Origin: Alphaproteobacteria bacterium
GTDB lineage: Bacteria; Pseudomonadota; Alphaproteobacteria; Micavibrionales; UBA2020
DNA: 64,000 nucleotides
Direction: 5' to 3'
NCBI GenBank assembly: GCA_041287865.1
Contig: JBGGMV010000037.1
Span: 4,614 to 68,613 of the forward strand
A program made the position numbers and the translations under genes. The notes under the pieces were generated by a model. That model worked only from the letters and a program-made list of their open reading frames with translations, ran no database searches and was not told the DNA's origin. Shown piece after piece: positions 10,368-63,813 of this stretch (positions within the stretch are counted from its first letter, which is position 1; each line of letters begins with the position of its first letter).

Positions 10368-10849
10368 TACTTCACCACCAGCCCGGGTTTGTGCACGACA
10401 TCCATCGCTTTATAAATCTTCAGCGCGGTGGAAACATCAAAGGCATGGAGTTTCAGGAGCGGGATATCGACGCCCAGGATATTGACGAATTGCGGGTCGG
10501 GGAGGCGCGGGACTTCTTCGTGCTTCACAAGGTCGACCACAAGGCGCAGACGGGCGGGGTCGGCCACGGGATAGCGCAGCAGGCCGATGCCGCGCACTTC
10601 GATCAAGCCGCTGATGGCCTCGACCGCGCCGGCATAAATTTTATCCTGACGTTTCTCGAAACTGACCTGATCGTCGCAGATCAGCTCGCTGCCGTTCTCG
10701 ATCAGGCGGAAGGCAAGGTCGGACTTGCCGGAGCCGGAGCGGCCGCGCAGGAAGACGACGGAGGGCGAAAAATTGACGCTCTTCAGCAGCACGGCCGAGC
10801 CATGCAGCACCGTAGTCTTGGGAGGCGGTGGCGTCTTTGGGATGCCCAC
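10367..10849 (-). CDS. hprK: HPr kinase/phosphorylase, C-terminal-domain-only form
   Basis: 160 aa with P-loop LRGRSGSGKSDLAFRLI. Short HprK lacking the N-terminal domain is the usual alphaproteobacterial form. Confidence 0.8.
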   Translation of the reverse strand: MGIPKTPPPPKTTVLHGSAVLLKSVNFSPSVVFLRGRSGSGKSDLAFRLIENGSELICDDQVSFEKRQDKIYAGAVEAISGLIEVRGIGLLRYPVADPARLRLVVDLVKHEEVPRLPDPQFVNILGVDIPLLKLHAFDVSTALKIYKAMDVVHKPGLVVK

Positions 10850-10871
10850 GGCTGGATGAACCTTTTTTGGG

Positions 10872-12218
10872 TCAGCCGTTCAGTTTCAGGGCATGGCCGA
10901 CCAGGTAAAGAGAGCCCGTAATGATTATACGCTGCGGCGTCGTGAATTGTAAGGCAAGCGACCGGATCGCGCTTTCCAGATTATCGGCAGGCTGCGCATT
11001 GGCAAAGCCCATAGCCTTCAGGGAATCACATAATTCCTGCGGCGGCACCAGCGGCGCGTCGATGCGGGCATCCACGGCCTGAATGCTTTTGGGAATGCCG
11101 ACAAGGCGTTCGTAGAAACCGTCGGTATCTTTCTTTTTCTTGAAGCCGGTGATGATATGCAGCGGCTTTTCATCGCCCCAGGCCTTGGCCTGCGCCGCCA
11201 AAACTTCCGCGCCAGAATCGTTATGCGCGCCATCGGCCCAAAGCTCCCAACCCTTCGGCAGCAGATCGGCCAGATGGCCGCGGGTGAGTTGCTGGAAGCG
11301 GCCCGGCCATGTAACGGTTTCCATGGCGCGGGTGAGCGTGTCCTGCTTCAGCAGGCTGGCGAAGGGGCTGTTCTCCAGACCCGCAATCGCCGTGCCTGCG
11401 TTGATGACCTGATGCCCGCCCAGCAGTTTCGGCAGGGGTAGCGTGAATTTGTTTTTGCCCTGATAGGTGAAGGCATTGCCCCGCACCTCCGTGCTCCAGT
11501 CGCGGCCCGCAACGAACGTCGGCGCGCCCATTTCAGCGGCGCGGCGCAGGAAAACCTCGTTCACCTCGGGCGACTGGGGGGCCACGATGGCGGGGCATCC
11601 GCGCTTGATAATACCGGCCTTCTCGCCCGCAATGGCCGGCAGCGTATCGCCCAGCAGGCGGGTATGGTCATAGGAAATACGCGTCAGCAGCGCGATGCTT
11701 TTTTCGATCACGTTAGTGGCGTCATAATTGCCGCCAAGGCCGGTTTCGAGAAGTACGGCATCGGCGGGCGTGCGCGCGTAAATCAGGAACGCGAGCGCGG
11801 TGAAAAATTCGAAGAAGGAGATTTCATCGTCACCCGCCGCGCGCTTCACTTCGCCGATCAGTTCCAGCAGGTGATCGGGCTCGATCTGCTTGCCCGCCAC
11901 GACAATCCGTTCCTCGAAACGGACGAGGTGCGGGGAGATGAATTTATGGACGGTTAATCCGCCAGCCTCGAACATCGATTGCAGGAAGGCCAGCGTCGAG
12001 CCCTTGCCGTTGGTGCCCGCAACGTGAAAAACGGGCGGCATTTTGTGCTGCGGGTTGCCAAGTTTTGCCAGCATCTGCTTCGGCCTATCAAGGCCGTTCG
12101 GCAGCATCGGCGGGCTTTTCAGGCGGATTTCGTTGACGGCAAGCTCGACGGCGGGGACGGGCGAAAAGGTCCACTCGCGTTGCGGCTGCGGGGCGGCGGC
12201 CTCTTTTTTGTCAAGCAT
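10872..12218 (-). CDS. folC: Bifunctional folylpolyglutamate synthase / dihydrofolate synthase
   Basis: 448 aa. Mur-ligase P-loop HVAGTNGKGST and conserved accD-folC synteny. Confidence 0.9.
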   Translation of the reverse strand: MLDKKEAAAPQPQREWTFSPVPAVELAVNEIRLKSPPMLPNGLDRPKQMLAKLGNPQHKMPPVFHVAGTNGKGSTLAFLQSMFEAGGLTVHKFISPHLVRFEERIVVAGKQIEPDHLLELIGEVKRAAGDDEISFFEFFTALAFLIYARTPADAVLLETGLGGNYDATNVIEKSIALLTRISYDHTRLLGDTLPAIAGEKAGIIKRGCPAIVAPQSPEVNEVFLRRAAEMGAPTFVAGRDWSTEVRGNAFTYQGKNKFTLPLPKLLGGHQVINAGTAIAGLENSPFASLLKQDTLTRAMETVTWPGRFQQLTRGHLADLLPKGWELWADGAHNDSGAEVLAAQAKAWGDEKPLHIITGFKKKKDTDGFYERLVGIPKSIQAVDARIDAPLVPPQELCDSLKAMGFANAQPADNLESAIRSLALQFTTPQRIIITGSLYLVGHALKLNG

Positions 12219-13120: not shown

Positions 13121-13231
13121 TCGGTTACATAACGCTTTTGGCGTCCTTTCGAGGATGAGTCTTTAACATGGGGCGCGGTTTACCGTCACCTGATTTATAA
13201 TTAACATAATTTGATTGTTAAGTACCTGAAA

Positions 13232-14465: not shown

Positions 14466-14660
14466 TTATTTGTTCACCAGCATTTCGAAGTCGAGCTCGA
14501 CGCAGGCGAACTCCTTGTACTCGGCATTAATGCCGGCAGGCTCGGGCGTGCCTTTCGCGCGGGGCGCGGATTTCGCAAACTGATCACGGACATCAAGCGC
14601 ATCGGCCCAGGCGTCCGCTTCAGGGAAATCAACAGCAGGGCTCATCATTAAGGACTCCAT
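14466..14660 (-). CDS. Small acidic hypothetical protein (64 aa)
   Basis: ORF with its own terminator and an AT-rich upstream region. No family recognised. Confidence 0.4.
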   Translation of the reverse strand: MESLMMSPAVDFPEADAWADALDVRDQFAKSAPRAKGTPEPAGINAEYKEFACVELDFEMLVNK

Positions 14661-14922
14661 CCTTGTTCAGGCCTTGATTCTGGCGATAGCCTTAGTATTG
14701 CATCTATATGTTAATTATATGCTAATATGGTTAATAGACTCCTAGCGCTTGAAAACATCATTATACATTTGATTTATAATGATTTTTATAGCCTCAAACC
14801 CCCTCTGAAATTACTTTACATAATTATTGCAATCCCACCCCTTTTGTATAATAATGTCCCAATGCCCAAAACAGCCGATTTAGCGCCTCTTTAGAAGGAC
14901 ATGGCCGGATGTGTGAAGGCAA
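14661..14922. promoter_or_regulatory. AT-rich divergent intergenic region upstream of the ankyrin operon
   Basis: About 260 nt that are visibly much more AT-rich than the flanks (for example ttaattatatgctaatatggttaatag and tttataatgatttttata). It separates divergent genes. No specific sites were assigned. Confidence 0.4.
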
Positions 14923-15750
14923 ATGGAGTGTGTGATGCCCGTCATGGATTTTTTCACCAAGGCCGCGACAAAAATGGCCCAGCCTGACCTCGACCGCCAC
15001 CTTGTGCTGGCGGCGCAGGAGGGCGATATCGAAAAAATGAAAACCCTGATCAAGCAAGGCGCCAGCATCGACGGCCGCGACGCCAGCGAAGACACTCCCC
15101 TGATCGGCGCAGCGCGCGAAGACAAGCTGGAGGCCGTGAAATTCCTGCTGAAGCAAGGCGCCGACCCGACCCTGCAAAACGGCATCGGCAAGACCGCGCT
15201 GCTGATCGCGCTTTGCGACCATGTGGCCGAAGAAATCTCGCTCACGCTGGTCAAGACCGGAAAAGCGCTCGATGCAGTCGACATGCACGGCAACCCCGCC
15301 GCCTTTTACGCCGCGCAATACGGCCACCCAAAAGTGCTGGAGGCCCTGGCCGAAGGCGGCGCCGATATGGCGAAGCCCGGCAAGTACGGCACCACGCCGC
15401 TGATGCGTGCTATCGAAGTCGGGCAGATTGATGCCGGCCGCACGCTGATCGGCGAGAAGCTGGTGCCTGCGGTTGGCATTGATATGCAGGATAATAACGG
15501 CTCGACCGTGCTGGCGCTGGCGGTCGAAAACAAGCGCGATATCTTCGTCATGTCCTTTATCGCGCTGGGCGCGAACGCGGACCTGAAAGACAAGCAGGGC
15601 CGCACGCCCTATTCCATCGCCGAGGAAACGGGACAGACCGCTATCTGCCGCGCCCTCGAAGAACAGCGCGCAAAAAAATACGCCGTGGCAGCATCGGCAA
15701 CGGTCAAGACCATGAAAACGATTTCGCTGCGGACGGGGGCCACGCCATGA
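14923..15750 (+). CDS. Ankyrin-repeat protein 1 (275 aa)
   Basis: Repeated ANK consensus (GASIDGRDASEDTPLIGAAREDKLEAVKFLLKQGADP, GNPAAFYAAQYGHPKVLEALAEGGAD, and others). An AAGG RBS precedes the ATG. Confidence 0.85.
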   Translation: MECVMPVMDFFTKAATKMAQPDLDRHLVLAAQEGDIEKMKTLIKQGASIDGRDASEDTPLIGAAREDKLEAVKFLLKQGADPTLQNGIGKTALLIALCDHVAEEISLTLVKTGKALDAVDMHGNPAAFYAAQYGHPKVLEALAEGGADMAKPGKYGTTPLMRAIEVGQIDAGRTLIGEKLVPAVGIDMQDNNGSTVLALAVENKRDIFVMSFIALGANADLKDKQGRTPYSIAEETGQTAICRALEEQRAKKYAVAASATVKTMKTISLRTGATP

Positions 15751-17774
15751 AAAGCCCGACGCCCGCAGACAAAGAAAAGCTGGACAAGGCAATCGCCGAC
15801 GCCGTGCGTCTCGGCAATATTTTCCGCGTCGAGGACCTGATCGACCAGTACAGCTGCAACCCCGACGCAAGTATTGCGGGCCACCCGCTGGTGACGCTCG
15901 CCGTCAAGCACAAGCAGCCGAAGATGCTGGCGCTGCTGCTGCAAAAGGGCGCAGCGGTCGATGCCGTCAACCCCGACGGAGATTCAGCGCTATTGCTGGC
16001 GACACGCGCCAGAAAGGGCGATTTTGTAAAGCTGCTGCTGGCGGCAGGCGCGCCACTGCTGCAACAGAACAACGCCGGCGACAGGTCGGCCGATATCGCG
16101 CTGCGCAGCACGCTGGCATCGCGCCGCGAGGAAGACGCCGCCCACCAGAACCGCAAGCATGAATTCCGCGCCGTGATCGACAAATGGGGCGAAGTGCTCG
16201 AAGCCTTCGTCACGCACCCCGCTTTCGACGCCACCACAGGCTGCGACGGCAAGCCTTATATCAATTTCGCCGTCGATGCCTCCACCCCCGGCGTCGTGTC
16301 TGCCTTGCTTGCACGCGGGGCCAGCATTGAATCGATCACGGCTGCGGGCGATACCCCGCTGTTGCAGGCTGCGCAGCACTGCCGTGAAGATTTCACAGAA
16401 CTGCTGCTAGGCAAAGGCGCAAACGTCAATGCCGTTAATAACGCCGGCGAAGACGCCGTCAGCACCCTGCTGAAAAAAGCCGCAAATATGTGCGCGGAAG
16501 AAGCTGACCTCTACGACTTCCAGCTGAAGGATCACCGTCCCGAAACCGCGCGGCGTGAAGCGCTGGCCACGCTGCTGATCAACCAGCAGGGCTTTAATGC
16601 GAAAGGTGCTGCGGGCGGGCAGCCCTACATCGCGCTGGCCGCCGCAGGTACGGGCATCGCGGTAGTCGAAGCGCTGCTGGCGAAGGGCGCGAATGTCGAC
16701 GCGCAGGATTCCGCAGGCGATACGCCGTTGTTCAAAGCGGCGCGCGCCGGAAACCAGGAGATGGCCGAATTCCTGCTGCAAAAGGGCGCGGATGCGCGTC
16801 ATATCAATGCGACCGGCGAAACGCTGGAATCGATCGTGCTGAAGGGGTTTGCCGACTTCGTGAACACCCCGTTGCGCACCGGCCACAAGCAGACAAGAGC
16901 AAAATGGGAAAAATTCTCCGCCTGGGCGATCGAGAAAGACGGCTATAACATCGAGGCCGCCGCAGGCGGCCTGACGCTGCTGGGCCTTGCCGCGCGGCTG
17001 GACGAGCCCGCGCTGGTGGAAGCACTGCTGAAAAAAGGCGCAGATATAAACGGCCAGCATGACAGCGGCTACACGCCCCTGATGGCGGCGGTGCAGGGCT
17101 GCAGGAAAGAATTCGCGCAGGCGCTGCTGTCAGGCGGCGCAAGGCTGGACATCACGACGAAAACGGGTGAAACCGTCATCGGCACCGCGCTGAAGGGCAC
17201 GTCGGATTTCATGGACCAGATGGATAACCCGCCCGAGCACTTCGACTTGAGGGAGGCCCCCGAACAGCTGGCACGCTGGGAAAGCCTGTTCGAAATGCTG
17301 GCCGCCGGGCAGGGTTACGATGCCAATGCAAAGGGCGGCGGCAAGCCGCTGGTGGCGCTGGCGGCGCGCTTTAATTCCGCGGCGACGCTTAAGTCATTGC
17401 TGGAGGCCGGCGCAACCCCCGACGCGCCCGCCGACAACGGCGACACCGCCCTGATGGTCGCAACCCGTCATTGCCATCCCGACCATGCCAAATTACTGCT
17501 GGAAAAAGGCGCCAGCCCCTATGCGCAGAACGCCGCCGGCATTACTGCCCAGAAAATCGCGGTCGATGCCGAAGACGCCTTCCTGCAGACCCGTCCCGGC
17601 AGCGGCACGACATGGGAACAGCACGAAGCAACCCGCAGGAAATGGGACAAGCTGGTCGACATGCTGTCGAGTCAGCAGGAAAACGTCGCCTCGGCGCTCA
17701 TCGCCCCGCCCACCGAAGCCGTTGCCGTGCGCAACAAGCCGCTCAGGCTGAAACTGAAGCTGGGGCAGCAATGA
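15747..17774 (+). CDS. Ankyrin-repeat protein 2 (675 aa, built of super-repeats)
   Basis: Many ANK units (for example GDTPLLQAAQHCREDFTELLLGKGANVNA). Its ATGA start overlaps the stop of ankyrin gene 1. Confidence 0.9.
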   Translation: MKSPTPADKEKLDKAIADAVRLGNIFRVEDLIDQYSCNPDASIAGHPLVTLAVKHKQPKMLALLLQKGAAVDAVNPDGDSALLLATRARKGDFVKLLLAAGAPLLQQNNAGDRSADIALRSTLASRREEDAAHQNRKHEFRAVIDKWGEVLEAFVTHPAFDATTGCDGKPYINFAVDASTPGVVSALLARGASIESITAAGDTPLLQAAQHCREDFTELLLGKGANVNAVNNAGEDAVSTLLKKAANMCAEEADLYDFQLKDHRPETARREALATLLINQQGFNAKGAAGGQPYIALAAAGTGIAVVEALLAKGANVDAQDSAGDTPLFKAARAGNQEMAEFLLQKGADARHINATGETLESIVLKGFADFVNTPLRTGHKQTRAKWEKFSAWAIEKDGYNIEAAAGGLTLLGLAARLDEPALVEALLKKGADINGQHDSGYTPLMAAVQGCRKEFAQALLSGGARLDITTKTGETVIGTALKGTSDFMDQMDNPPEHFDLREAPEQLARWESLFEMLAAGQGYDANAKGGGKPLVALAARFNSAATLKSLLEAGATPDAPADNGDTALMVATRHCHPDHAKLLLEKGASPYAQNAAGITAQKIAVDAEDAFLQTRPGSGTTWEQHEATRRKWDKLVDMLSSQQENVASALIAPPTEAVAVRNKPLRLKLKLGQQ

Positions 17775-18361
17775 AGGACGATTTTGACGATAAAGCCGCG
17801 CCGCATAATGGCAAGAACCTGCTCGGCGAACAGCTGATCACCGCGATCAATACCGGCGATCACGGCGAAGTCGTATCTCTGCTGGACAAATGGGCCGACC
17901 CCGCCGCCTATACCGACGCGGAAGGGCACGCCATCATCGCGGCCGTCAAGCAGCATAACCCCGAGATTTTAAAAACATTGGTCGAAGCCGGCGCGCCGCT
18001 GAACGTGCGCGACCGCGACGGCAAGACGCCGCTGCATGTGGCCGTCACCTACGGAAACGTCGACCATGTTAAAACGCTGGTGACGAAGGGCGCGATTGTC
18101 ACCATTCCCTGCCACGAGGGTCGCACGGCGCTGCAGCGCGCAGAAGAATCCTACGACTACGCCTATAAGATGCTGGAAAATGCCGCGCAGTCGGAAAGCG
18201 CGACCGATTTCGAGCAGGAAACGGTCAATCGCCTCGACAAGATCACCAGCCTGCTGAAACAGTATGTGAACAACGCTCCCGATACGACTTTCGACGACGG
18301 GCTGCTGGAAAACATCCACATCAAGTCGCCGCTGCGCCTGAAGAAGCCGGGGGCGACATGA
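17771..18361 (+). CDS. Ankyrin-repeat protein 3 (196 aa)
   Basis: The internal start MKDDFDDK of ORF 17471-18361 was chosen because its ATG overlaps the stop of gene 2 (ATGA) and the upstream part lies inside gene 2. ANK units include DGKTPLHVAVTYGNVDHVKTLVTKGA. Confidence 0.8.
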   Translation: MKDDFDDKAAPHNGKNLLGEQLITAINTGDHGEVVSLLDKWADPAAYTDAEGHAIIAAVKQHNPEILKTLVEAGAPLNVRDRDGKTPLHVAVTYGNVDHVKTLVTKGAIVTIPCHEGRTALQRAEESYDYAYKMLENAAQSESATDFEQETVNRLDKITSLLKQYVNNAPDTTFDDGLLENIHIKSPLRLKKPGAT

Positions 18362-18897
18362 GCATCGGCGACGAAGTGGAAACGCCGGGACGCGATATTC
18401 CCTGCGATGGCGACAATGCACTGATGTTCTACGCAAAGCGCGCAGGCAGCCATCGCAAGATATTCAGGCTGGCGTCTGAAGGCCATGACCTCAACGCACG
18501 CGACGACCTTGAACGCTGCTCGTTGATACTGGCGACAGTCAGCCACGATGTGCGCAACGTTCTGGTGCTCTTGCGCAAAGGCGCGGACCTGCATTCAACC
18601 GACGAGGGCGGCGATACGCCGCTGCACTGGGCGGTTTACCACAAGAACGCCGATGTCGCGCGCCTGTTGCTAAAAAAGGGCGCGGACATGGAGAAGCCCA
18701 ACCTGAAGGGCCAAACCCCGTTGCAGGCGGCGCTAGACGATTGCCATGCGCCGATGGTCGAAACCTTTATCACCGCTAAAACGGAACGCCTGACGGCCGC
18801 CTTCACCAAAGGCACGGCGGCACCGCTGACTGTGAGGCTTCCCCTGACCCTGGGCGCACGCGCCAAATTGAAACAAAAAGCTAGGAAGCCGCTTTAA
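18358..18897 (+). CDS. Ankyrin-repeat protein 4 (179 aa)
   Basis: ANK units (GGDTPLHWAVYHKNADVARLLLKKGADM). Its ATGA start overlaps the stop of gene 3. Confidence 0.85.
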   Translation: MSIGDEVETPGRDIPCDGDNALMFYAKRAGSHRKIFRLASEGHDLNARDDLERCSLILATVSHDVRNVLVLLRKGADLHSTDEGGDTPLHWAVYHKNADVARLLLKKGADMEKPNLKGQTPLQAALDDCHAPMVETFITAKTERLTAAFTKGTAAPLTVRLPLTLGARAKLKQKARKPL

Positions 18898-30285: not shown

Positions 30286-30411
30286 GCCTGATTCCGTCAA
30301 TCTATATTGACATATAATTTTTCACGCGCGATGGCCCTTCGCATCTGCCGCTGGCTTATCCCCTGCGTTGGGATAAGATATTGGCAGGGTTTATCCGGGG
30401 GTATCGCCATC

Positions 30412-31386
30412 ATGCTGAAAATATCTTTTGCCGCTCTGTGCCTGTCATTGCTGATGCTGGCCCGCCCCGCTTGCGCCGAGCCGCCGGCGCAGGCCGTTAT
30501 CGGCACGGTGATGGAGGTGGAGGGGCAGGCCTGGATATCCTCTCCCGTCACCAAGACGAAAACGGCGGCGAAGGTCGAAACCCCACTGCATATCAACGAC
30601 GTCATCGACACCGGCCCCAAGTCGCGCGTCTTTATCCTCTTCATCGACAACACGCAGATCACCCTGTCGGCCAATACCAAGTTCCGCGCCGAGGACTATG
30701 TCTTCGACGAAAGCGCGCCCGCGTACAACAAGGCGCGGTATAACGTGATGAGCGGGACGTTCCAGTATCTGAGCGGCGCGCTGGGCAAGACCAAGGATCC
30801 GGATGTCGAGATCGAGACGCCCTATGGCGCGATCGGCATCCGCGGCACGAAATTCTGGGCCGGCGAAATCGAAAACGCCTATGGCGTCAACGTGCAGGAA
30901 GGCCGCGTGCGCGTGCGCAACGAGGGTGGCGAAGTCTTCGTCGACAAAGGCAAGGGCACATCGCTCAAAAGCCGCAAGCAAAAACCCTCCGCCGCCGTTC
31001 CATGGCCCGCGAAACAACTCCAGCTGATTGCGGCCACCGTCTTGCTGTCGCGGCAGGACGACGTGCTGAAGCGCGTCATGGGTTTCCAGGGCAAAAACAA
31101 CATGCTGCGCGGCCAGTTCAAGGATTTCCTGAAGATCAACGGCGGAATACCCGGCATGAACAATGTGCCCGGCAACATGGTGCCCGGCCAGATAGTCCCG
31201 GGCCAGAAGGGCGGCATGCTGTTTGATATTCCGGGAGGCACCGCGCCGGTCAAGAACAGGGCGACCGTCGCCCCCGGCACCAGAACAAAAGCCGGCAATC
31301 GCACTGCGCCTGCAGAGGCAGTGCCGTCCACGCCAAGCCCCCGGGCTCCCTCGCCCTTTAAAATGTTCAAGGTTCCGGGCCTATGA
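30412..31386 (+). CDS. Secreted FecR-domain protein with Pro/Gly-rich C-terminus
   Basis: The internal start MLKISFAALCLSLLMLARPACA-EP (signal peptide) of ORF 30307-31386 was chosen. FecR-like block: GTVMEVEGQAWISS..PLHINDVIDTGPKSRVFILFIDNTQITLSANTKF. The tail has PGNMVPGQIVPGQ repeats. Confidence 0.7.
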   Translation: MLKISFAALCLSLLMLARPACAEPPAQAVIGTVMEVEGQAWISSPVTKTKTAAKVETPLHINDVIDTGPKSRVFILFIDNTQITLSANTKFRAEDYVFDESAPAYNKARYNVMSGTFQYLSGALGKTKDPDVEIETPYGAIGIRGTKFWAGEIENAYGVNVQEGRVRVRNEGGEVFVDKGKGTSLKSRKQKPSAAVPWPAKQLQLIAATVLLSRQDDVLKRVMGFQGKNNMLRGQFKDFLKINGGIPGMNNVPGNMVPGQIVPGQKGGMLFDIPGGTAPVKNRATVAPGTRTKAGNRTAPAEAVPSTPSPRAPSPFKMFKVPGL

Positions 31387-32546
31387 CGCAGCAAAACGTC
31401 TCCCTGCGCAAATGGCTCGGCGATAAATTTTCCACGCGGTCGGGCACCCGAGCGCTGATCAGCCCGGGGATGGATTTCCTGCTGGTGGGCGGGCTTTCCT
31501 GCATCACGCTGGCGATCTATTTCCTGATCAGCGACGGTTTCAAGATCGAGGTCAAGGACGAAACCTATATCGTCGCCGCCTGGCTTTCCTTCGTCATCAA
31601 CTACCCGCATTTCGCCTATTCCTACATGCTGTTCTACAAGGGTTTCGTCGCGCGCCTCTTCGCGCCGGAAACAGAATTCTGGAGCCGCGTGAGGATGTCC
31701 ATCGCCGGGCTTTTCGTACCCGCGCTGATGCTCGCCTATTTCGTCCGCGCCTATGTGACGCAAAACCCCGAATACATCATGTGGGCGCTGTTCACGATGA
31801 TCTTTACCGTCGGCTGGCACTACGTGAAGCAGGCCTACGGCGTACTGATCACCATGTCCGTCTACCGCAATATTTTCTATGCGACCTGGGAAAAGCGGAT
31901 TTTGTGGATCAATGCCTATGCCGTCTGGGCCTATTCGTGGTGCCGCACCAACAGCACCGGCAACGACATCCCCTATCGCCATATCCAGATGAAATCCTTC
32001 AAGTTCCCGCTGGAAGTGATAGACGGCAGTTTCTATTTCGCCTGCTTCACCACCGCCGCCTGCATCGCCATCGTGCTGAACCGCTGGCTGTCGGAGAACA
32101 GGGGAATATCGGTGAACGCCGTCATCGGCTATGCCTGCGGGATTTACATGTGGGTGATGATACCCTTCATGAACATGGCTTTCTATATCCTGATCCCGAT
32201 GTTCCATTCCCTGCAATACCTGCCCTTCGTCTACAAATTCAAGAAATCGGAGCTGGTGCGGGAGCTGGAACGCCCGCTTGGCGACTACAAGCGCTCGCGC
32301 CGCAACTTCATCATCCATGCGCTGCTGTTTACCGTCACGGGCGGCGTGCTGGGGCTGTTGTTCTTTGAAACCATCCCCAACCTGCTGGACGATCATTACA
32401 GCACGAAGCTTGAATACGCGGGGCTGGACCCGCTGTTCTTCTTCTTCGCCTTTACCGTCTTCATCAACGTCCACCATTTCTTCATCGACAGCGCCTTCTG
32501 GCGCCGCGACAACAGGGACGCGCAGAAGAACCTGTTCAGGGCGTGA
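31383..32546 (+). CDS. Polytopic membrane protein with four conserved His motifs (paralogue A)
   Basis: 387 aa with about 9-10 hydrophobic helices. Motifs YPHFAYSYMLFY, GWHYVKQAYGVLIT, PMFHSLQYLPFVYKFK and NVHHFFIDSAFWRRDN. The ATG overlaps the FecR-like stop (ATGA). Family not recognised. Confidence 0.75.
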   Translation: MTQQNVSLRKWLGDKFSTRSGTRALISPGMDFLLVGGLSCITLAIYFLISDGFKIEVKDETYIVAAWLSFVINYPHFAYSYMLFYKGFVARLFAPETEFWSRVRMSIAGLFVPALMLAYFVRAYVTQNPEYIMWALFTMIFTVGWHYVKQAYGVLITMSVYRNIFYATWEKRILWINAYAVWAYSWCRTNSTGNDIPYRHIQMKSFKFPLEVIDGSFYFACFTTAACIAIVLNRWLSENRGISVNAVIGYACGIYMWVMIPFMNMAFYILIPMFHSLQYLPFVYKFKKSELVRELERPLGDYKRSRRNFIIHALLFTVTGGVLGLLFFETIPNLLDDHYSTKLEYAGLDPLFFFFAFTVFINVHHFFIDSAFWRRDNRDAQKNLFRA

Positions 32547-32550
32547 GTAA

Positions 32551-33639
32551 ATGACCGAGGCTGCCGTCCGCACCCGCGCGCTGATTTCTCCGCAGGCCGA
32601 TTTCTGGCTGCTGGGCGGGGCCTCGCTGCTCAGCTTTTTTCTTTATCTGACCGTGCTGCCCTATGTGGACCGCGAATTCCGCAAGGCGCTGCCGGTCATC
32701 ATCATCACGCTGTCCTTCGTGATGTCGTATCCGCACTTCGCCTATTCATACCTGCTGTTCTATCGCGGCTTTACCGGGCGCCTGTTTGGCGAGGGCACGG
32801 AATTTTTTAGCCGCATCCGCCATGCCCTGGCAGGCATCATCGTGCCGGCAGCGCTGGCGGCCTATTTCGCCGTGACATTCCACGAGCGTGATACATCAAT
32901 GGTGGGCTGGGGCTATTTCGTCATGCTGTTCACCGTCGGCTGGCACTACGTCAAGCAGGGCTACGGCGTGCTGATAACACTGTCGCTCTACAAGGGCGTT
33001 TTCTACGGCGTGTGGGAAAAACGCGCGCTCTGGATCAATGCCTATGCCGTCTGGCTCTGGTCATGGGCGGCGGCCAACAACGCGCTGGCGGCGCAGGTGG
33101 TGGATAAAAACTATCCGCCGGGACTTTACCCATCAATCCCCCTGCCCGACTGGGTCGTGACCTATGGCGGCGTTTTCGCCTGCATTACCACGCTCGCGGC
33201 GGCAGCCGTCGTGCTGGCGCCGTGGCTGGAAGGAGAAAAGAAAATATCGGTTAACGCCGTGGTGGGTTATGTGTCGGCTATCTACATGTGGGTGCTGATG
33301 CCGCGCATCGACATGATGTTCTATGCCATCGTACCGCTGTTCCACGGCCTTCAATACCTGCCCTTCGTCTATAAATTCAAGCGCGAGGAATTCAGGAAGA
33401 TGACAAGCGCGCGCGGTGCGGCGGCTTTCACGCTGCTGGGCCTGTTTGCGGGGGCGGTGCTGATGGAGTTTTTCCCAAAGGCGCTCGACCGCAACTTCGG
33501 CATCACGGGCCTCTCTTACGAGCCGAAATTTTACCTGACGTCCTTTATCATTTTTATCAACGTGCATCATTTCTTCATCGACGCCGCTTTCTGGCGGCGC
33601 GACAATAAAGACGTGCAGAATTACCTGTTTAAGGCTTAA
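32551..33639 (+). CDS. Polytopic membrane protein with four conserved His motifs (paralogue B)
   Basis: 362 aa, collinear with paralogue A. It carries the same motifs: YPHFAYSYLLFY, GWHYVKQGYGVLIT, PLFHGLQYLPFVYKFK and NVHHFFIDAAFWRRDN. Confidence 0.75.
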   Translation: MTEAAVRTRALISPQADFWLLGGASLLSFFLYLTVLPYVDREFRKALPVIIITLSFVMSYPHFAYSYLLFYRGFTGRLFGEGTEFFSRIRHALAGIIVPAALAAYFAVTFHERDTSMVGWGYFVMLFTVGWHYVKQGYGVLITLSLYKGVFYGVWEKRALWINAYAVWLWSWAAANNALAAQVVDKNYPPGLYPSIPLPDWVVTYGGVFACITTLAAAAVVLAPWLEGEKKISVNAVVGYVSAIYMWVLMPRIDMMFYAIVPLFHGLQYLPFVYKFKREEFRKMTSARGAAAFTLLGLFAGAVLMEFFPKALDRNFGITGLSYEPKFYLTSFIIFINVHHFFIDAAFWRRDNKDVQNYLFKA

Positions 33640-62991: not shown

Positions 62992-63813
62992 TTAAATCTC
63001 GTAATCCGGATTAAACGGCGGCGCGGCCGGTGGCGGCGGCGGTGTTTGCGTGTTCGTCGGCTTCAGCGTCAGGCGCTGCGGCGGCGCGTTTTGCTTCAGC
63101 GTGTCGCGGCGCGCTTCGGCCAGTGCCGCGGCGAAGTCGAATTTCTTCTTGAGCCGTGCCGGCACGTCTTCCCAGAGCTTTTCCATGTCTTCGGTCTTGC
63201 CGGTCCAGCTCTTGGGGTTGAAGATATCCTTGAGGTTATCTTCGCGGAAGGTGATCTTGGGCGCTGCGGGCGCGGCAGTAGCGCCGCCTTCGGCTGCATC
63301 CGACATCGCGCCGAAGCTCTGGGGCGACGCGGGTTTTTTCGCGGCGGCCTTTTTCGGCGCGGCTTTTTTCTTTTTCGGCTTCACATCGTCGTCATCGTCG
63401 AAGCCGAAATCATCGTCATCCCAGCCACCGCCGCCGCGCGTGGCGCGTTTCGAGGTTCCGCCGCCTCTGCGGCTGCTGCCGTGCATCCAGTCGTCATCAT
63501 CATCCCACGATGGCGTGGAGGGCGAGACGCCTTCGTCTTCCAGGTATTTCGCAATTTTCACGTAGCCGTAGCTGTTCGCAGCGTCGAGCGCGTTGTTGCC
63601 GGTGTAATTCGTGCGGTGCGGATCCGCGCCGCCGTCGATGAGCGCCTTCACGATGGGCAGGTGGCCCTGACGCGCGGCCGCGAGCAGCGGCGTATCGCCG
63701 TAAGTGTCGTCGAAATCGGGATCGACGCCTTTTTTCAGGAGCGCCTTCACGCGGCGCGTGTTGCCATCAAAGATGGCATCCATCAGCGATTCCTGGTCTT
63801 TGGTCAATTTCAT
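62992..63813 (-). CDS. Ankyrin-repeat protein 6 (273 aa) with charged low-complexity C-terminal half
   Basis: N-terminal ANK units (YGDTPLLAAARQGHLPIVKALIDGGADP). These are followed by DDDDDW..GGGGWDDDDFGFDDDDD and KPKKKKAAPKKAAAKKP tracts and a Pro-rich end. Confidence 0.85.
   Translation of the reverse strand: MKLTKDQESLMDAIFDGNTRRVKALLKKGVDPDFDDTYGDTPLLAAARQGHLPIVKALIDGGADPHRTNYTGNNALDAANSYGYVKIAKYLEDEGVSPSTPSWDDDDDWMHGSSRRGGGTSKRATRGGGGWDDDDFGFDDDDDVKPKKKKAAPKKAAAKKPASPQSFGAMSDAAEGGATAAPAAPKITFREDNLKDIFNPKSWTGKTEDMEKLWEDVPARLKKKFDFAAALAEARRDTLKQNAPPQRLTLKPTNTQTPPPPPAAPPFNPDYEI

Follow-up and report, generated by a model that had tools for sequence, protein, structure and literature searches.

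This analysis concerns a 64,000-nucleotide (nt) stretch of contig JBGGMV010000037.1 from an alphaproteobacterial assembly, hereafter called the window and numbered from its first letter. It centers on a cluster of four head-to-tail genes for ankyrin-repeat (ANK) proteins, A1 to A4, that lie between a divergent small-ORF-yjgF-pyrF unit (ORF, open reading frame) and a class II ribonucleotide reductase (RNR) gene. Judged from sequence comparison, the four genes belong to a core, lineage-specific ANK family of Micavibrio-like bacteria that grows by tandem duplication and is marked by an undescribed C-terminal motif. The initial annotation of this DNA had listed four ANK ORFs of 275, 675, 196 and 179 amino acids (aa), and both the ORF positions and Pfam matches bear this out, with A1 refined to 271 aa. 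The genes are the following:

14935..15750 (from 14923 if the upstream ATG is used), plus strand: A1, placed as the ancestral ANK gene, 271 aa (275 aa from 14923), Pfam match
15747..17774, plus strand: A2, 675 aa, with a tail behind five modules, each 117-135 aa long and made of a helix and about three ANK repeats, Pfam match
17771..18361, plus strand: A3, 196 aa, 3-4 ANK repeats, two long helices and a tail, the most conserved paralog
18358..18897, plus strand: A4, 179 aa, basic (isoelectric point, pI, 9.0), ANK repeats and a tail, placed as the second-oldest array member, Pfam match

All four proteins exceed the Pfam gathering scores for Ank or Ank_2 (E-values 6e-17 to 3e-48). Two further ANK proteins, ANK5 (56898-57470, plus strand) and ANK6 (62992-63813, minus strand), bring the count to six per 64-kb window, the number given in the initial annotation, and the six together produced Ank, Ank_2 and Ank_4 matches above the cut-offs (E-values 1e-13 to 3e-48). 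The GC content at third codon positions (GC3) of A1-A4 is 0.72-0.77, within usual window values. Compared with the nearest lineage, the ratio of nonsynonymous to synonymous substitution rates (dN/dS) is 0.29 for A1, 0.27 for A2, 0.11 for A3 and 0.15 for A4 (overall range, 0.11-0.30; A3, 0.11-0.17), and the flanking yjgF, pyrF, accD, folC and RNR genes show values of 0.04-0.13. A1 and A2 evolve 3-7 times faster than these housekeeping neighbors, yet under purifying selection. By these measures, the four ANK genes are judged to be real, functional and constrained. The start of A1 is more probably the ATG at 14935 (271 aa) than the ATG at 14923, because a GGAG lies 6 nt upstream, an independent gene caller made the same choice on the identical ENA contig, and the resulting N-terminus carries M-x(2-5)-[LIF]-F-[ND]-x-x-A in register with the orthologs, in which this motif is conserved.

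The four frames are joined by ATGA stop/start overlaps at 15747-15750, 17771-17774 and 18358-18361, exactly where they had been reported, and such overlaps were also found in four of the related loci described below (L003, L006, L010 and L014, which carry two or four genes at this position). The claim that these junctions are unusual did not hold once the window was surveyed: overlaps of 4 nt occur in 9 of 40 co-directional neighbor pairs, six of them outside the cluster (6 of 37 other same-strand pairs), and 1-nt overlaps account for four more of the 40. The ATGA overlap is the commonest junction type in the genome, as sampled by the window, and is therefore ordinary. Every internal start (A2, A3 and A4) is preceded by its own Shine-Dalgarno (SD)-like GGGG(G) run, 4-7 nt upstream, and no promoter or terminator signal above shuffled background was found in the array interior. 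Given a single conserved upstream promoter, the lack of internal signals and the recurrence of the overlaps in other lineages, the four ANK genes very probably form one operon, presumably read as a single transcript. The earlier idea of an ANK-only operon with obligately coupled translation is thus retained for the operon but not for the obligate coupling, given that each internal start has its own SD-like run and that 4-nt overlaps are the default. Translational coupling across the junctions is plausible from the layout, which in this respect is that of ordinary coupled ATGA operons, with the same four-base overlap and an SD-like run within the upstream gene; nothing differs here.

The C-terminal tail

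All paralogs appear to share a common plan, in which an ANK solenoid is followed by a capping helix and a predicted-disordered, net-positive C-terminal tail. The AlphaFold2 (AF2) model of A1 has a mean predicted local distance difference test (pLDDT) score of 87.9 and contains seven helix pairs, with the solenoid at residues 16-231 and the capping helix at 235-254; confidence is low from about residue 251, and pLDDT falls below 50 for residues 265-271. The A3 model (mean pLDDT 73.8) shows a 3-4-repeat solenoid and two long C-terminal helices, with residues 171-196 below 50. A Foldseek search with the A3 model placed DARPins and other ANK structures on top (probability 1.00), and these generic matches, the only ones obtained, gave no functional lead. 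The pI is 9.0 for A4, a basic protein, and 5.3-5.9 for the acidic A1-A3. None of the ANK paralogs has an N-terminal hydrophobic segment, their maximum Kyte-Doolittle hydropathy, KD(10), in the first 35 residues being 0.4-1.4 against 2.2-2.6 in two signal-peptide-like neighbor proteins used as controls, and A1-A4 contain no RTX repeats. The tails were delimited by alignments and hidden Markov model (HMM) searches as follows:

15697..15747, plus strand: A1 tail, ATVKTMKTISLRTGATP (tail alignments, HMM searches)
17694..17771, plus strand: A2 tail, ALIAPPTEAVAVRNKPLRLKLKLGQQ (tail alignments, HMM searches)
18281..18358, plus strand: A3 tail, DTTFDDGLLENIHIKSPLRLKKPGAT, in which SPLRLKKPG is invariant in 8 orthologs; predicted disordered
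18799..18894, plus strand: A4 tail, AFTKGTAAPLTVRLPLTLGARAKLKQKARKPL (tail alignments, HMM searches)
Examples of the tail in the window: A1, ATVKTMKTISLRTG; A2, EAVAVRNKPLRLKLK; A3, ENIHIKSPLRLKKPG; A4, APLTVRLPLTLGAR
Examples of the tail in relatives: L014 copies, PFHSGTDGSVTIMKRLVLKG; L010 copies, NPFHRGTKKRIAVKSPLVIRPR

This tail of 15-30 residues is present in every copy and forms the most conserved segment of the proteins. Across all paralogs and lineages it reads aromatic-(H)-x-G-(T/V/L)-x3-phi-x-phi-(K/R/M)-(K/S)-(P)-phi-(R/K)-phi-(K/R)-x-(K/P/G), where phi stands for a hydrophobic residue, or in short form G-T-x3-phi-x-phi-K-x-P-L-R-L-K. When the window sequences were left out of its training set, a tail HMM picked out A1-A4, and nothing else, among the 899 window ORFs; the corresponding all-member HMM detected no unrelated protein among 267 fetched sequences (including about 200 other ANK proteins) or in related loci totaling 213 kb (2986 ORFs). 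Within these samples, the tail appears to be a previously undescribed, family-specific C-terminal motif. Its terminal Gly or Pro-Gly partly coincides with the SD-like G-run of the next gene; as the motif is also kept in single-gene loci and in the last genes of arrays, it is best regarded as a protein-level feature. A segment so strongly conserved and yet predicted to be disordered has the hallmarks of a short linear docking motif. At least 12 further residues come after the motif in A4.

The net charge of the tail ranges from 0 to +8 and is positive in 24 of 25 family members, on bodies that are mostly acidic; the A3 tail carries only +1. Such charge could point to nucleoid- or DNA-associated ANK proteins whose basic, P/K-rich tail would contact DNA much as SPKK or AT-hook motifs do. 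This role would be in line with the S/K-P-x-R/K-x-K-K-P pattern of the basic tails, with the histone-H1-like KPKKKKAAPKK carried by ANK6 and with the DNA binding of Ehrlichia Ank200 (PMC3417381). The conserved hydrophobic residues (phi-x-phi...P-phi-+-phi-+) are, however, atypical for minor-groove motifs, and neither the A3 tail, at only +1, nor the acidic bodies suit DNA contact, so that we regard this explanation as highly improbable.

Distribution and history of the array

Relatives of the locus were reached by following the neighboring RNR gene outwards, and the interval from the small-ORF-yjgF-pyrF unit to the class II RNR was taken as the slot. This slot carries ANK genes in 9 of 9 lineages examined, and its neighbors are yjgF, pyrF, accD, folC, class II RNR, NDUFA12, MlaD and DUF2155 in all of them. 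The number of ANK genes varies as follows:

Window, L006 and L003/L004: RNR identity 100% (window) and 84% (L003/L004), the L006 RNR being truncated at a contig end and its identity to the window unmeasured; four ANK genes
L010: RNR identity 58%; two ANK genes, A1-type and A4-type, with a 4-nt overlap
L014: RNR identity 57%; four ANK genes, two A1-like, one A3/A2-module-like and one A4-like
L013, L011 and L009: RNR identity 54-57%; one ANK gene each, A1-type
L012: RNR identity 44%; one ANK gene, short, A1-type

A1 orthologs were identified in the slots of L009, L010, L011, L013 and L014 (35-40% identity). The second gene of L010 is an A4 ortholog (44% identical), and an A4-like gene stands fourth in L014. 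The C-terminal region of A2 shares 30% identity with A3 over 150 aa, and the A2 modules are 24-38% identical to one another. The number of these modules changes even among close relatives: the A2 ortholog of L003 has 434 aa and 3 modules, compared with 675 aa and 5 modules in the window, and that of L006 has 678 aa. From the slot composition and copy counts over the nine lineages, A1 is placed as the ancestral gene and A4 as the next oldest; A2 and A3 appear to be mutually related. The array is best described as a set of paralogs from tandem duplication, which would have been at least partly independent in two lineages, as the expansion in L014 indicates.

Beyond these loci, A3 orthologs proved rare. 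They form 8 clusters among 5.8 billion proteins, with 72-100% identity and 194-196 aa each, and word-based protein searches returned these 8 close ortholog clusters for A3 and 7 for A1, the remainder being generic ANK matches. A profile search with the A1 ortholog alignment against 1.84 billion representatives yielded 526,954 matches, of which the top 150 are almost all giant multi-ANK proteins, so that any distant family members were swamped. A metagenome scan with the A3 alignment added no A3 ortholog, its matches being just generic ANK loci at 31-43% identity. Two other origins were considered and rejected. A phage origin found no backing in a viral scan with A1, which gave generic ANK matches only (23-32% identity, mostly from giant-virus metagenome-assembled genomes, MAGs), and recent horizontal transfer is at odds with a cluster whose GC content and GC3 match the window and with a slot that is syntenic across nine lineages.

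An extra tail-bearing ANK gene was observed outside the slot, between pyrF and accD, in L009 (13940-14575), L010 (6797-7600) and L011 (13194-13871), always on the minus strand. A fragment of about 90 aa lies beside this gene in L009 and L011 and stands alone in L013; in the window, the pyrF-accD gap (13121-13231) is only a 111-nt spacer. L009 also holds, between the RNR and the ANK gene (10794-11279, plus strand), a Gly/His/Gln-rich ORF of 161 aa with a signal-peptide-like N-terminus.

The copy counts bear directly on the proposal, made in the initial annotation, that the four proteins act together or in fixed stoichiometry. In such a model, the overlapping genes would supply the subunits of one hetero-complex, or, in a variant, the P-L-x-L-(K/R) tail of one paralog would lie in the ANK groove of another to build head-to-tail assemblies. 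Stop/start overlaps at every junction, recurring in other lineages, and the presence of both groove and tail in each copy would suit this model, and ANK grooves bind extended peptides. Yet relatives function with one or two slot genes and A2 exists with 3 or 5 modules, so that a fixed four-subunit complex does not fit; moreover, the junction type is the commonest one, each internal start has its own SD-like run, and the AF2 monomers (from shallow alignments) leave the tail undocked from their own groove. With copy numbers of 1, 2 or 4 genes contradicting a fixed stoichiometry, we consider the complex unlikely, and the common tail suggests a shared docking or export step instead.

The organism itself can be placed by the same comparison. 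The A2 protein has an exact match on one ENA metagenome contig, and the identical A3 and RNR proteins are labeled 'MAG: Alphaproteobacteria bacterium' at NCBI. The nearest species-level genome, with an RNR 84% identical, is a MAG titled 'uncultured Micavibrio sp.', and a further MAG titled 'Micavibrio sp.' is found among the syntenic relatives at greater distance. NCBI taxonomy still places the genus Micavibrio in Bdellovibrionota, while the MAG labels and the gene content of the window are alphaproteobacterial, as seen from DUF2155, NDUFA12 and the HprK-RapZ-EIIA-HPr PTS-Ntr cluster. In culture, Micavibrio live as obligate epibiotic predators (PMC3189940), so that the view that this is no ordinary free-living bacterium is upheld by its closest named relatives. 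Ankyrin is mentioned neither in the text nor in the supplements of the genome paper on M. aeruginosavorus. The unusual density of ANK genes is confirmed as well: six were found in 64 kb, whereas a survey of 1912 bacterial strains counted at least four per genome in only 202 of them (PMC3932732). A host-associated lifestyle goes along with ANK enrichment in that survey (PMC3932732).

Upstream spacer and surroundings

The features surrounding the array are listed below in order of position:

14466..14660, minus strand: small conserved ORF, 64 aa (58-67 aa elsewhere), heading the divergent yjgF-pyrF unit and called in 9 of 9 lineages
14661..14934, no strand assigned: predicted AT-rich divergent promoter/leader region between the minus-strand small ORF and A1, 37-38% GC
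14711..14725, plus strand: TTAA-N7-CTAA box, CtrA-box-like, 50 nt upstream of the small ORF start
14827..14855, plus strand: predicted sigma-70-like promoter, TTGCAA-17 nt-AATAAT, from a consensus scan, facing the ANK genes, with the transcription start inferred
14893..14903, plus strand: conserved SD and ATG in the leader, AGAAGGACATG, with the ATG at 14901, invariant in the window, L006 and L003
18881..21436, minus strand: class II (B12-dependent) RNR, Pfam match, PDB 7b9p at E=5e-115, convergent with A4

The spacer before the cluster (14661-14922) measures 262 nt and has 37% GC against about 60% for the window average. Long invariant blocks are common to the window, L006 and L003, and the spacer is conserved more than the A1 and A2 proteins. 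The same layout occurs in nine lineages, with homologous spacers all at 34-40% GC. The AT-rich region of about 260 nt that had been noted ahead of the cluster is thus present, but it is not specific to the ANK genes: from its layout, it is read as a divergent promoter region common to the ANK operon and the small-ORF-yjgF-pyrF unit. On the ANK side, 7 of 9 lineages have a TTGNNN-17/18-NATAAT promoter, which precedes the first ANK start by 31-84 nt. On the opposite side, each homologous spacer holds exactly one TTAA-N7-YTAA box (9 of 9 lineages). It lies 43-91 nt upstream of the small ORF, which is read in the other direction; its half-sites are invariant and the 7 nt between them vary. Only two such sites exist in the 64 kb. 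By its form, resembling the known alphaproteobacterial consensus, this box is a candidate CtrA site.

The conserved leader ATG has different consequences from locus to locus. In the window, the ATG of AGAAGGACATG opens a 28-codon out-of-frame upstream ORF (uORF, 14901-14987) that runs across the A1 start. The uORF of L006 has 4 codons, and in L003/L004 the ATG is in frame and adds 13 N-terminal residues to A1. The uORF may be a leader-peptide or re-initiation feature, or may reflect a 1-nt indel difference. Rfam and tRNA scans of the window gave no match, and the conserved leader fits no known RNA family.

The small ORF has no Pfam or NCBIfam match. With a dN/dS of 0.10-0.25 and a constant divergent pairing with the ANK slot, it is probably a real gene. 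At the other end of the array, A4 and the RNR gene overlap tail-to-tail by 17 nt in the window (18881-18897), L003 (11099-11115) and L006 (6300-6316); the gene in the A4 position overlaps the RNR by 4 nt in L014, and the overlap is 0 nt in L011 and L013. As such an overlap leaves terminators no space, antisense read-through between both units is likely.

No toxin or hydrolase gene was found within about 7-10 kb of the slot in the nine lineages, and no secretion gene in the window or in the approximately 200 kb of related loci examined. The former result bears on the notion of a self-protection or immunity array, in which the ANK proteins would neutralize the predator's own toxins or hydrolases, as Bd3460 of Bdellovibrio bacteriovorus or the ANK-type immunity proteins of polymorphic toxin systems do. 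Tandem arrays of immunity paralogs are known. The lineage is predatory, and the sole characterized ANK protein of a bacterial predator in the literature searched is an immunity protein (PMC4686830). Bd3460, however, has a signal peptide and lies beside its target enzyme (PMC4686830), whereas A1-A4 have no signal peptide and the slot no such enzyme in reach. This notion would also leave the constant tail unexplained, and we hold it to be quite improbable.

Several other observations were made in the window. ANK5 abuts, tail-to-tail and with zero gap, a 1592-aa ORF (57471-62249, minus strand) with a coding-like GC3 of 0.81 and P/A/K-rich segments; it has no Pfam or NCBIfam match, and its only PDB match is weak and confined to a low-complexity stretch. 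Upstream of this ORF lies the window's only perfect TTAA-N7-TTAA (62378-62392). ANK6 begins with about three ANK repeats, continues with acidic DDDD runs, a stretch rich in Gly and the histone-H1-like KPKKKKAAPKKAAAKKP, and closes with a further C-terminal region that has a Pro-rich end. ANK5 and ANK6 were considered as tail-bearing members on the basis of PDRFRR and QRLTLKP, found by eye; as the tail HMM detects neither, membership is not claimed. Finally, the genes at 31383-32546 and 32551-33639 (plus strand) are tandem paralogs with nearly identical C-termini (FINVHHFFID[S/A]AFWRRDN), the first of which has a weak Peptidase_M50B-like match and overlaps the upstream FecR-domain gene (30307-31386) by 4 nt.

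Possible roles of the tail and comparison with known systems

The reading we prefer, while holding it only tentatively, is that of parallel binding modules with one C-terminal address, for which an export signal would be the probable nature. An ancient A1 in a fixed chromosomal slot would have been duplicated in tandem to two and then four genes, with A2 additionally multiplying an internal three-repeat module. One conserved sigma-70-type promoter would drive all four genes, translated from closely packed starts, and the products would be made in the cytoplasm without a Sec signal. The variable ANK solenoid would offer a target-binding surface, followed by the long capping helix and the flexible, net-positive tail. 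The copies would act in parallel as alternative binders, and the constant tail would serve as the address that docks every copy onto one partner. In the preferred version, the tail would be an uncleaved C-terminal export or translocation signal by which the proteins are delivered to prey or host; outside the cell, the diverged ANK surfaces would bind different targets.

Precedents for such signals exist. C-terminal, unstructured, positively charged signals are known for substrates of VirB/D4 systems, and uncleaved C-terminal signals for type I secretion system (T1SS) substrates, including the Ehrlichia ANK protein Ank200 (PMC3417381). In family members, LDAVTSIF residues account for 36-62% of the C-terminal 50 positions, a range overlapping the 38-66% reported for T1SS substrates, which are acidic and often carry RTX or GD-rich repeats (PMC3417381). 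A +x+x+ pattern occurs in the A2 tail (RLKLK) and not in that of A1, and the full VirB/D4 consensus is matched by none. The density of ANK genes, the predatory relatives and the faster evolution of A1 and A2 favor export.

Several results weigh against an export signal. No secretion apparatus is encoded in the DNA surveyed above, and in the one published Micavibrio genome, that of M. aeruginosavorus ARL-13, which has a T1SS and a type II secretion system, the authors found no evidence of type III or type IV secretion systems (T4SS; PMC3189940). Secretion signals are usually degenerate, and a motif conserved this sharply fits a specific peptide-protein contact better. In the sampled DNA, the tail is found on ANK paralogs only, where a general export signal would be expected on other cargo too. 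Unlike typical T1SS signals, the tails are not poor in the residues KHPMWC (16-34% of the last 50), and they do not exactly match R-X7-R-X-R-X-R, the consensus quoted in PMC3417381. A core, syntenic, housekeeping-embedded locus with fairly well-conserved A3 and A4 would also fit a cytoplasmic role.

An explanation nearly as likely as export, though doubtful in its own right, is that the proteins are intracellular tethering adaptors or scaffolds whose ANK domains capture different cytoplasmic clients. Their layout would be that of SspB, in which a disordered linker connects the folded domain for binding to a conserved peptide at the terminus (PMC9963277). Usual export signals show far less sharp conservation than this motif, purifying selection acts on a locus that is core and syntenic, the ANK promoter is strong or near consensus, and secretion genes are absent nearby in the window and related loci. 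The tail of E. coli SspB, which ends in ...PALRVVK, resembles the PLRLKK motif. On the other hand, Pfam and NCBIfam scans showed no sequence homology to SspB or a known adaptor, and the A4 motif is not terminal, 12 or more residues following it. Interaction with foreign targets would better suit the ANK density and the speed at which A1 and A2 evolve.

Within the preferred reading of a shared export or docking address, a specific version is that the tail, as a translocation or docking signal new to the literature, hands diversifying ANK binders to one machine and that Micavibrio-like epibiotic predators deliver them into bacterial prey. We consider this rather unlikely. If true, it would describe ANK effectors aimed at bacterial, not eukaryotic, targets and would provide a sequence handle for the cargo, and eventually the route, of 'leeching' predation. 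How epibiotic predators act on prey is essentially unknown, and Bd3460 is the only characterized predator ANK protein found in the literature searched. The tail motif offers a probe, and the analysis has also defined a conserved promoter region with a CtrA-like box. Should the tail be an export or docking signal, it would identify predation cargo and machinery; should it tether the proteins to a cytoplasmic machine, it would define a new adaptor family built on ANK repeats; and if it does neither, the array would be no more than a neat case of a repeat-protein gene duplicated in tandem, with merely local interest.

Anti-phage ANK systems were also compared and rejected: MzaA scores were 41-136 bits against a cut-off of 800, PADLOC matches (PADLOC 'Ankyrin' and PDC-M72A were tested) were confined to the ANK part, and no partner genes lie nearby. 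The NCBIfam families T4SS_AnkC/D/F/G/H/I/X/Y likewise matched A1-A4 in the ANK region only, at 15-106 bits against cut-offs of 450-1400.

The array resembles the ANK effectors of intracellular bacteria (Dot/Icm Ank proteins of Legionella and Coxiella, AnkA and Ank200) in its Sec independence, functional C-terminus, many paralogs, fast evolution and variable copy number. Among these, Ank200 carries an uncleaved C-terminal T1SS signal and Anaplasma AnkA a basic C-terminal T4SS-type signal (PMC3417381). The array differs by its core syntenic locus, its sharply conserved and distinct tail motif and the lack of full-length similarity; moreover, the organism that carries the array is probably a bacterial predator rather than a parasite living within eukaryotic cells.

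Bd3460 is likewise a small ANK protein in a predator and acts purely by partner binding (PMC4686830). It is a periplasmic protein with a signal peptide, its gene adjoins that of the DD-endopeptidase it targets, and epibiotic predators reportedly lack it (PMC4686830); the array proteins have neither a signal peptide nor an enzyme neighbor. SspB-type AAA+ protease adaptors are alike in logic (PMC9963277), but the fold of the array proteins is ANK and only the architecture is shared, without homology. The tandem ANK expansions of symbionts such as Wolbachia and sponge symbionts also arise by local duplication, with copy and repeat numbers that vary between close relatives; from these the array is set apart by its fixed core slot, conserved promoter, overlapping frames and constant non-ANK tail.

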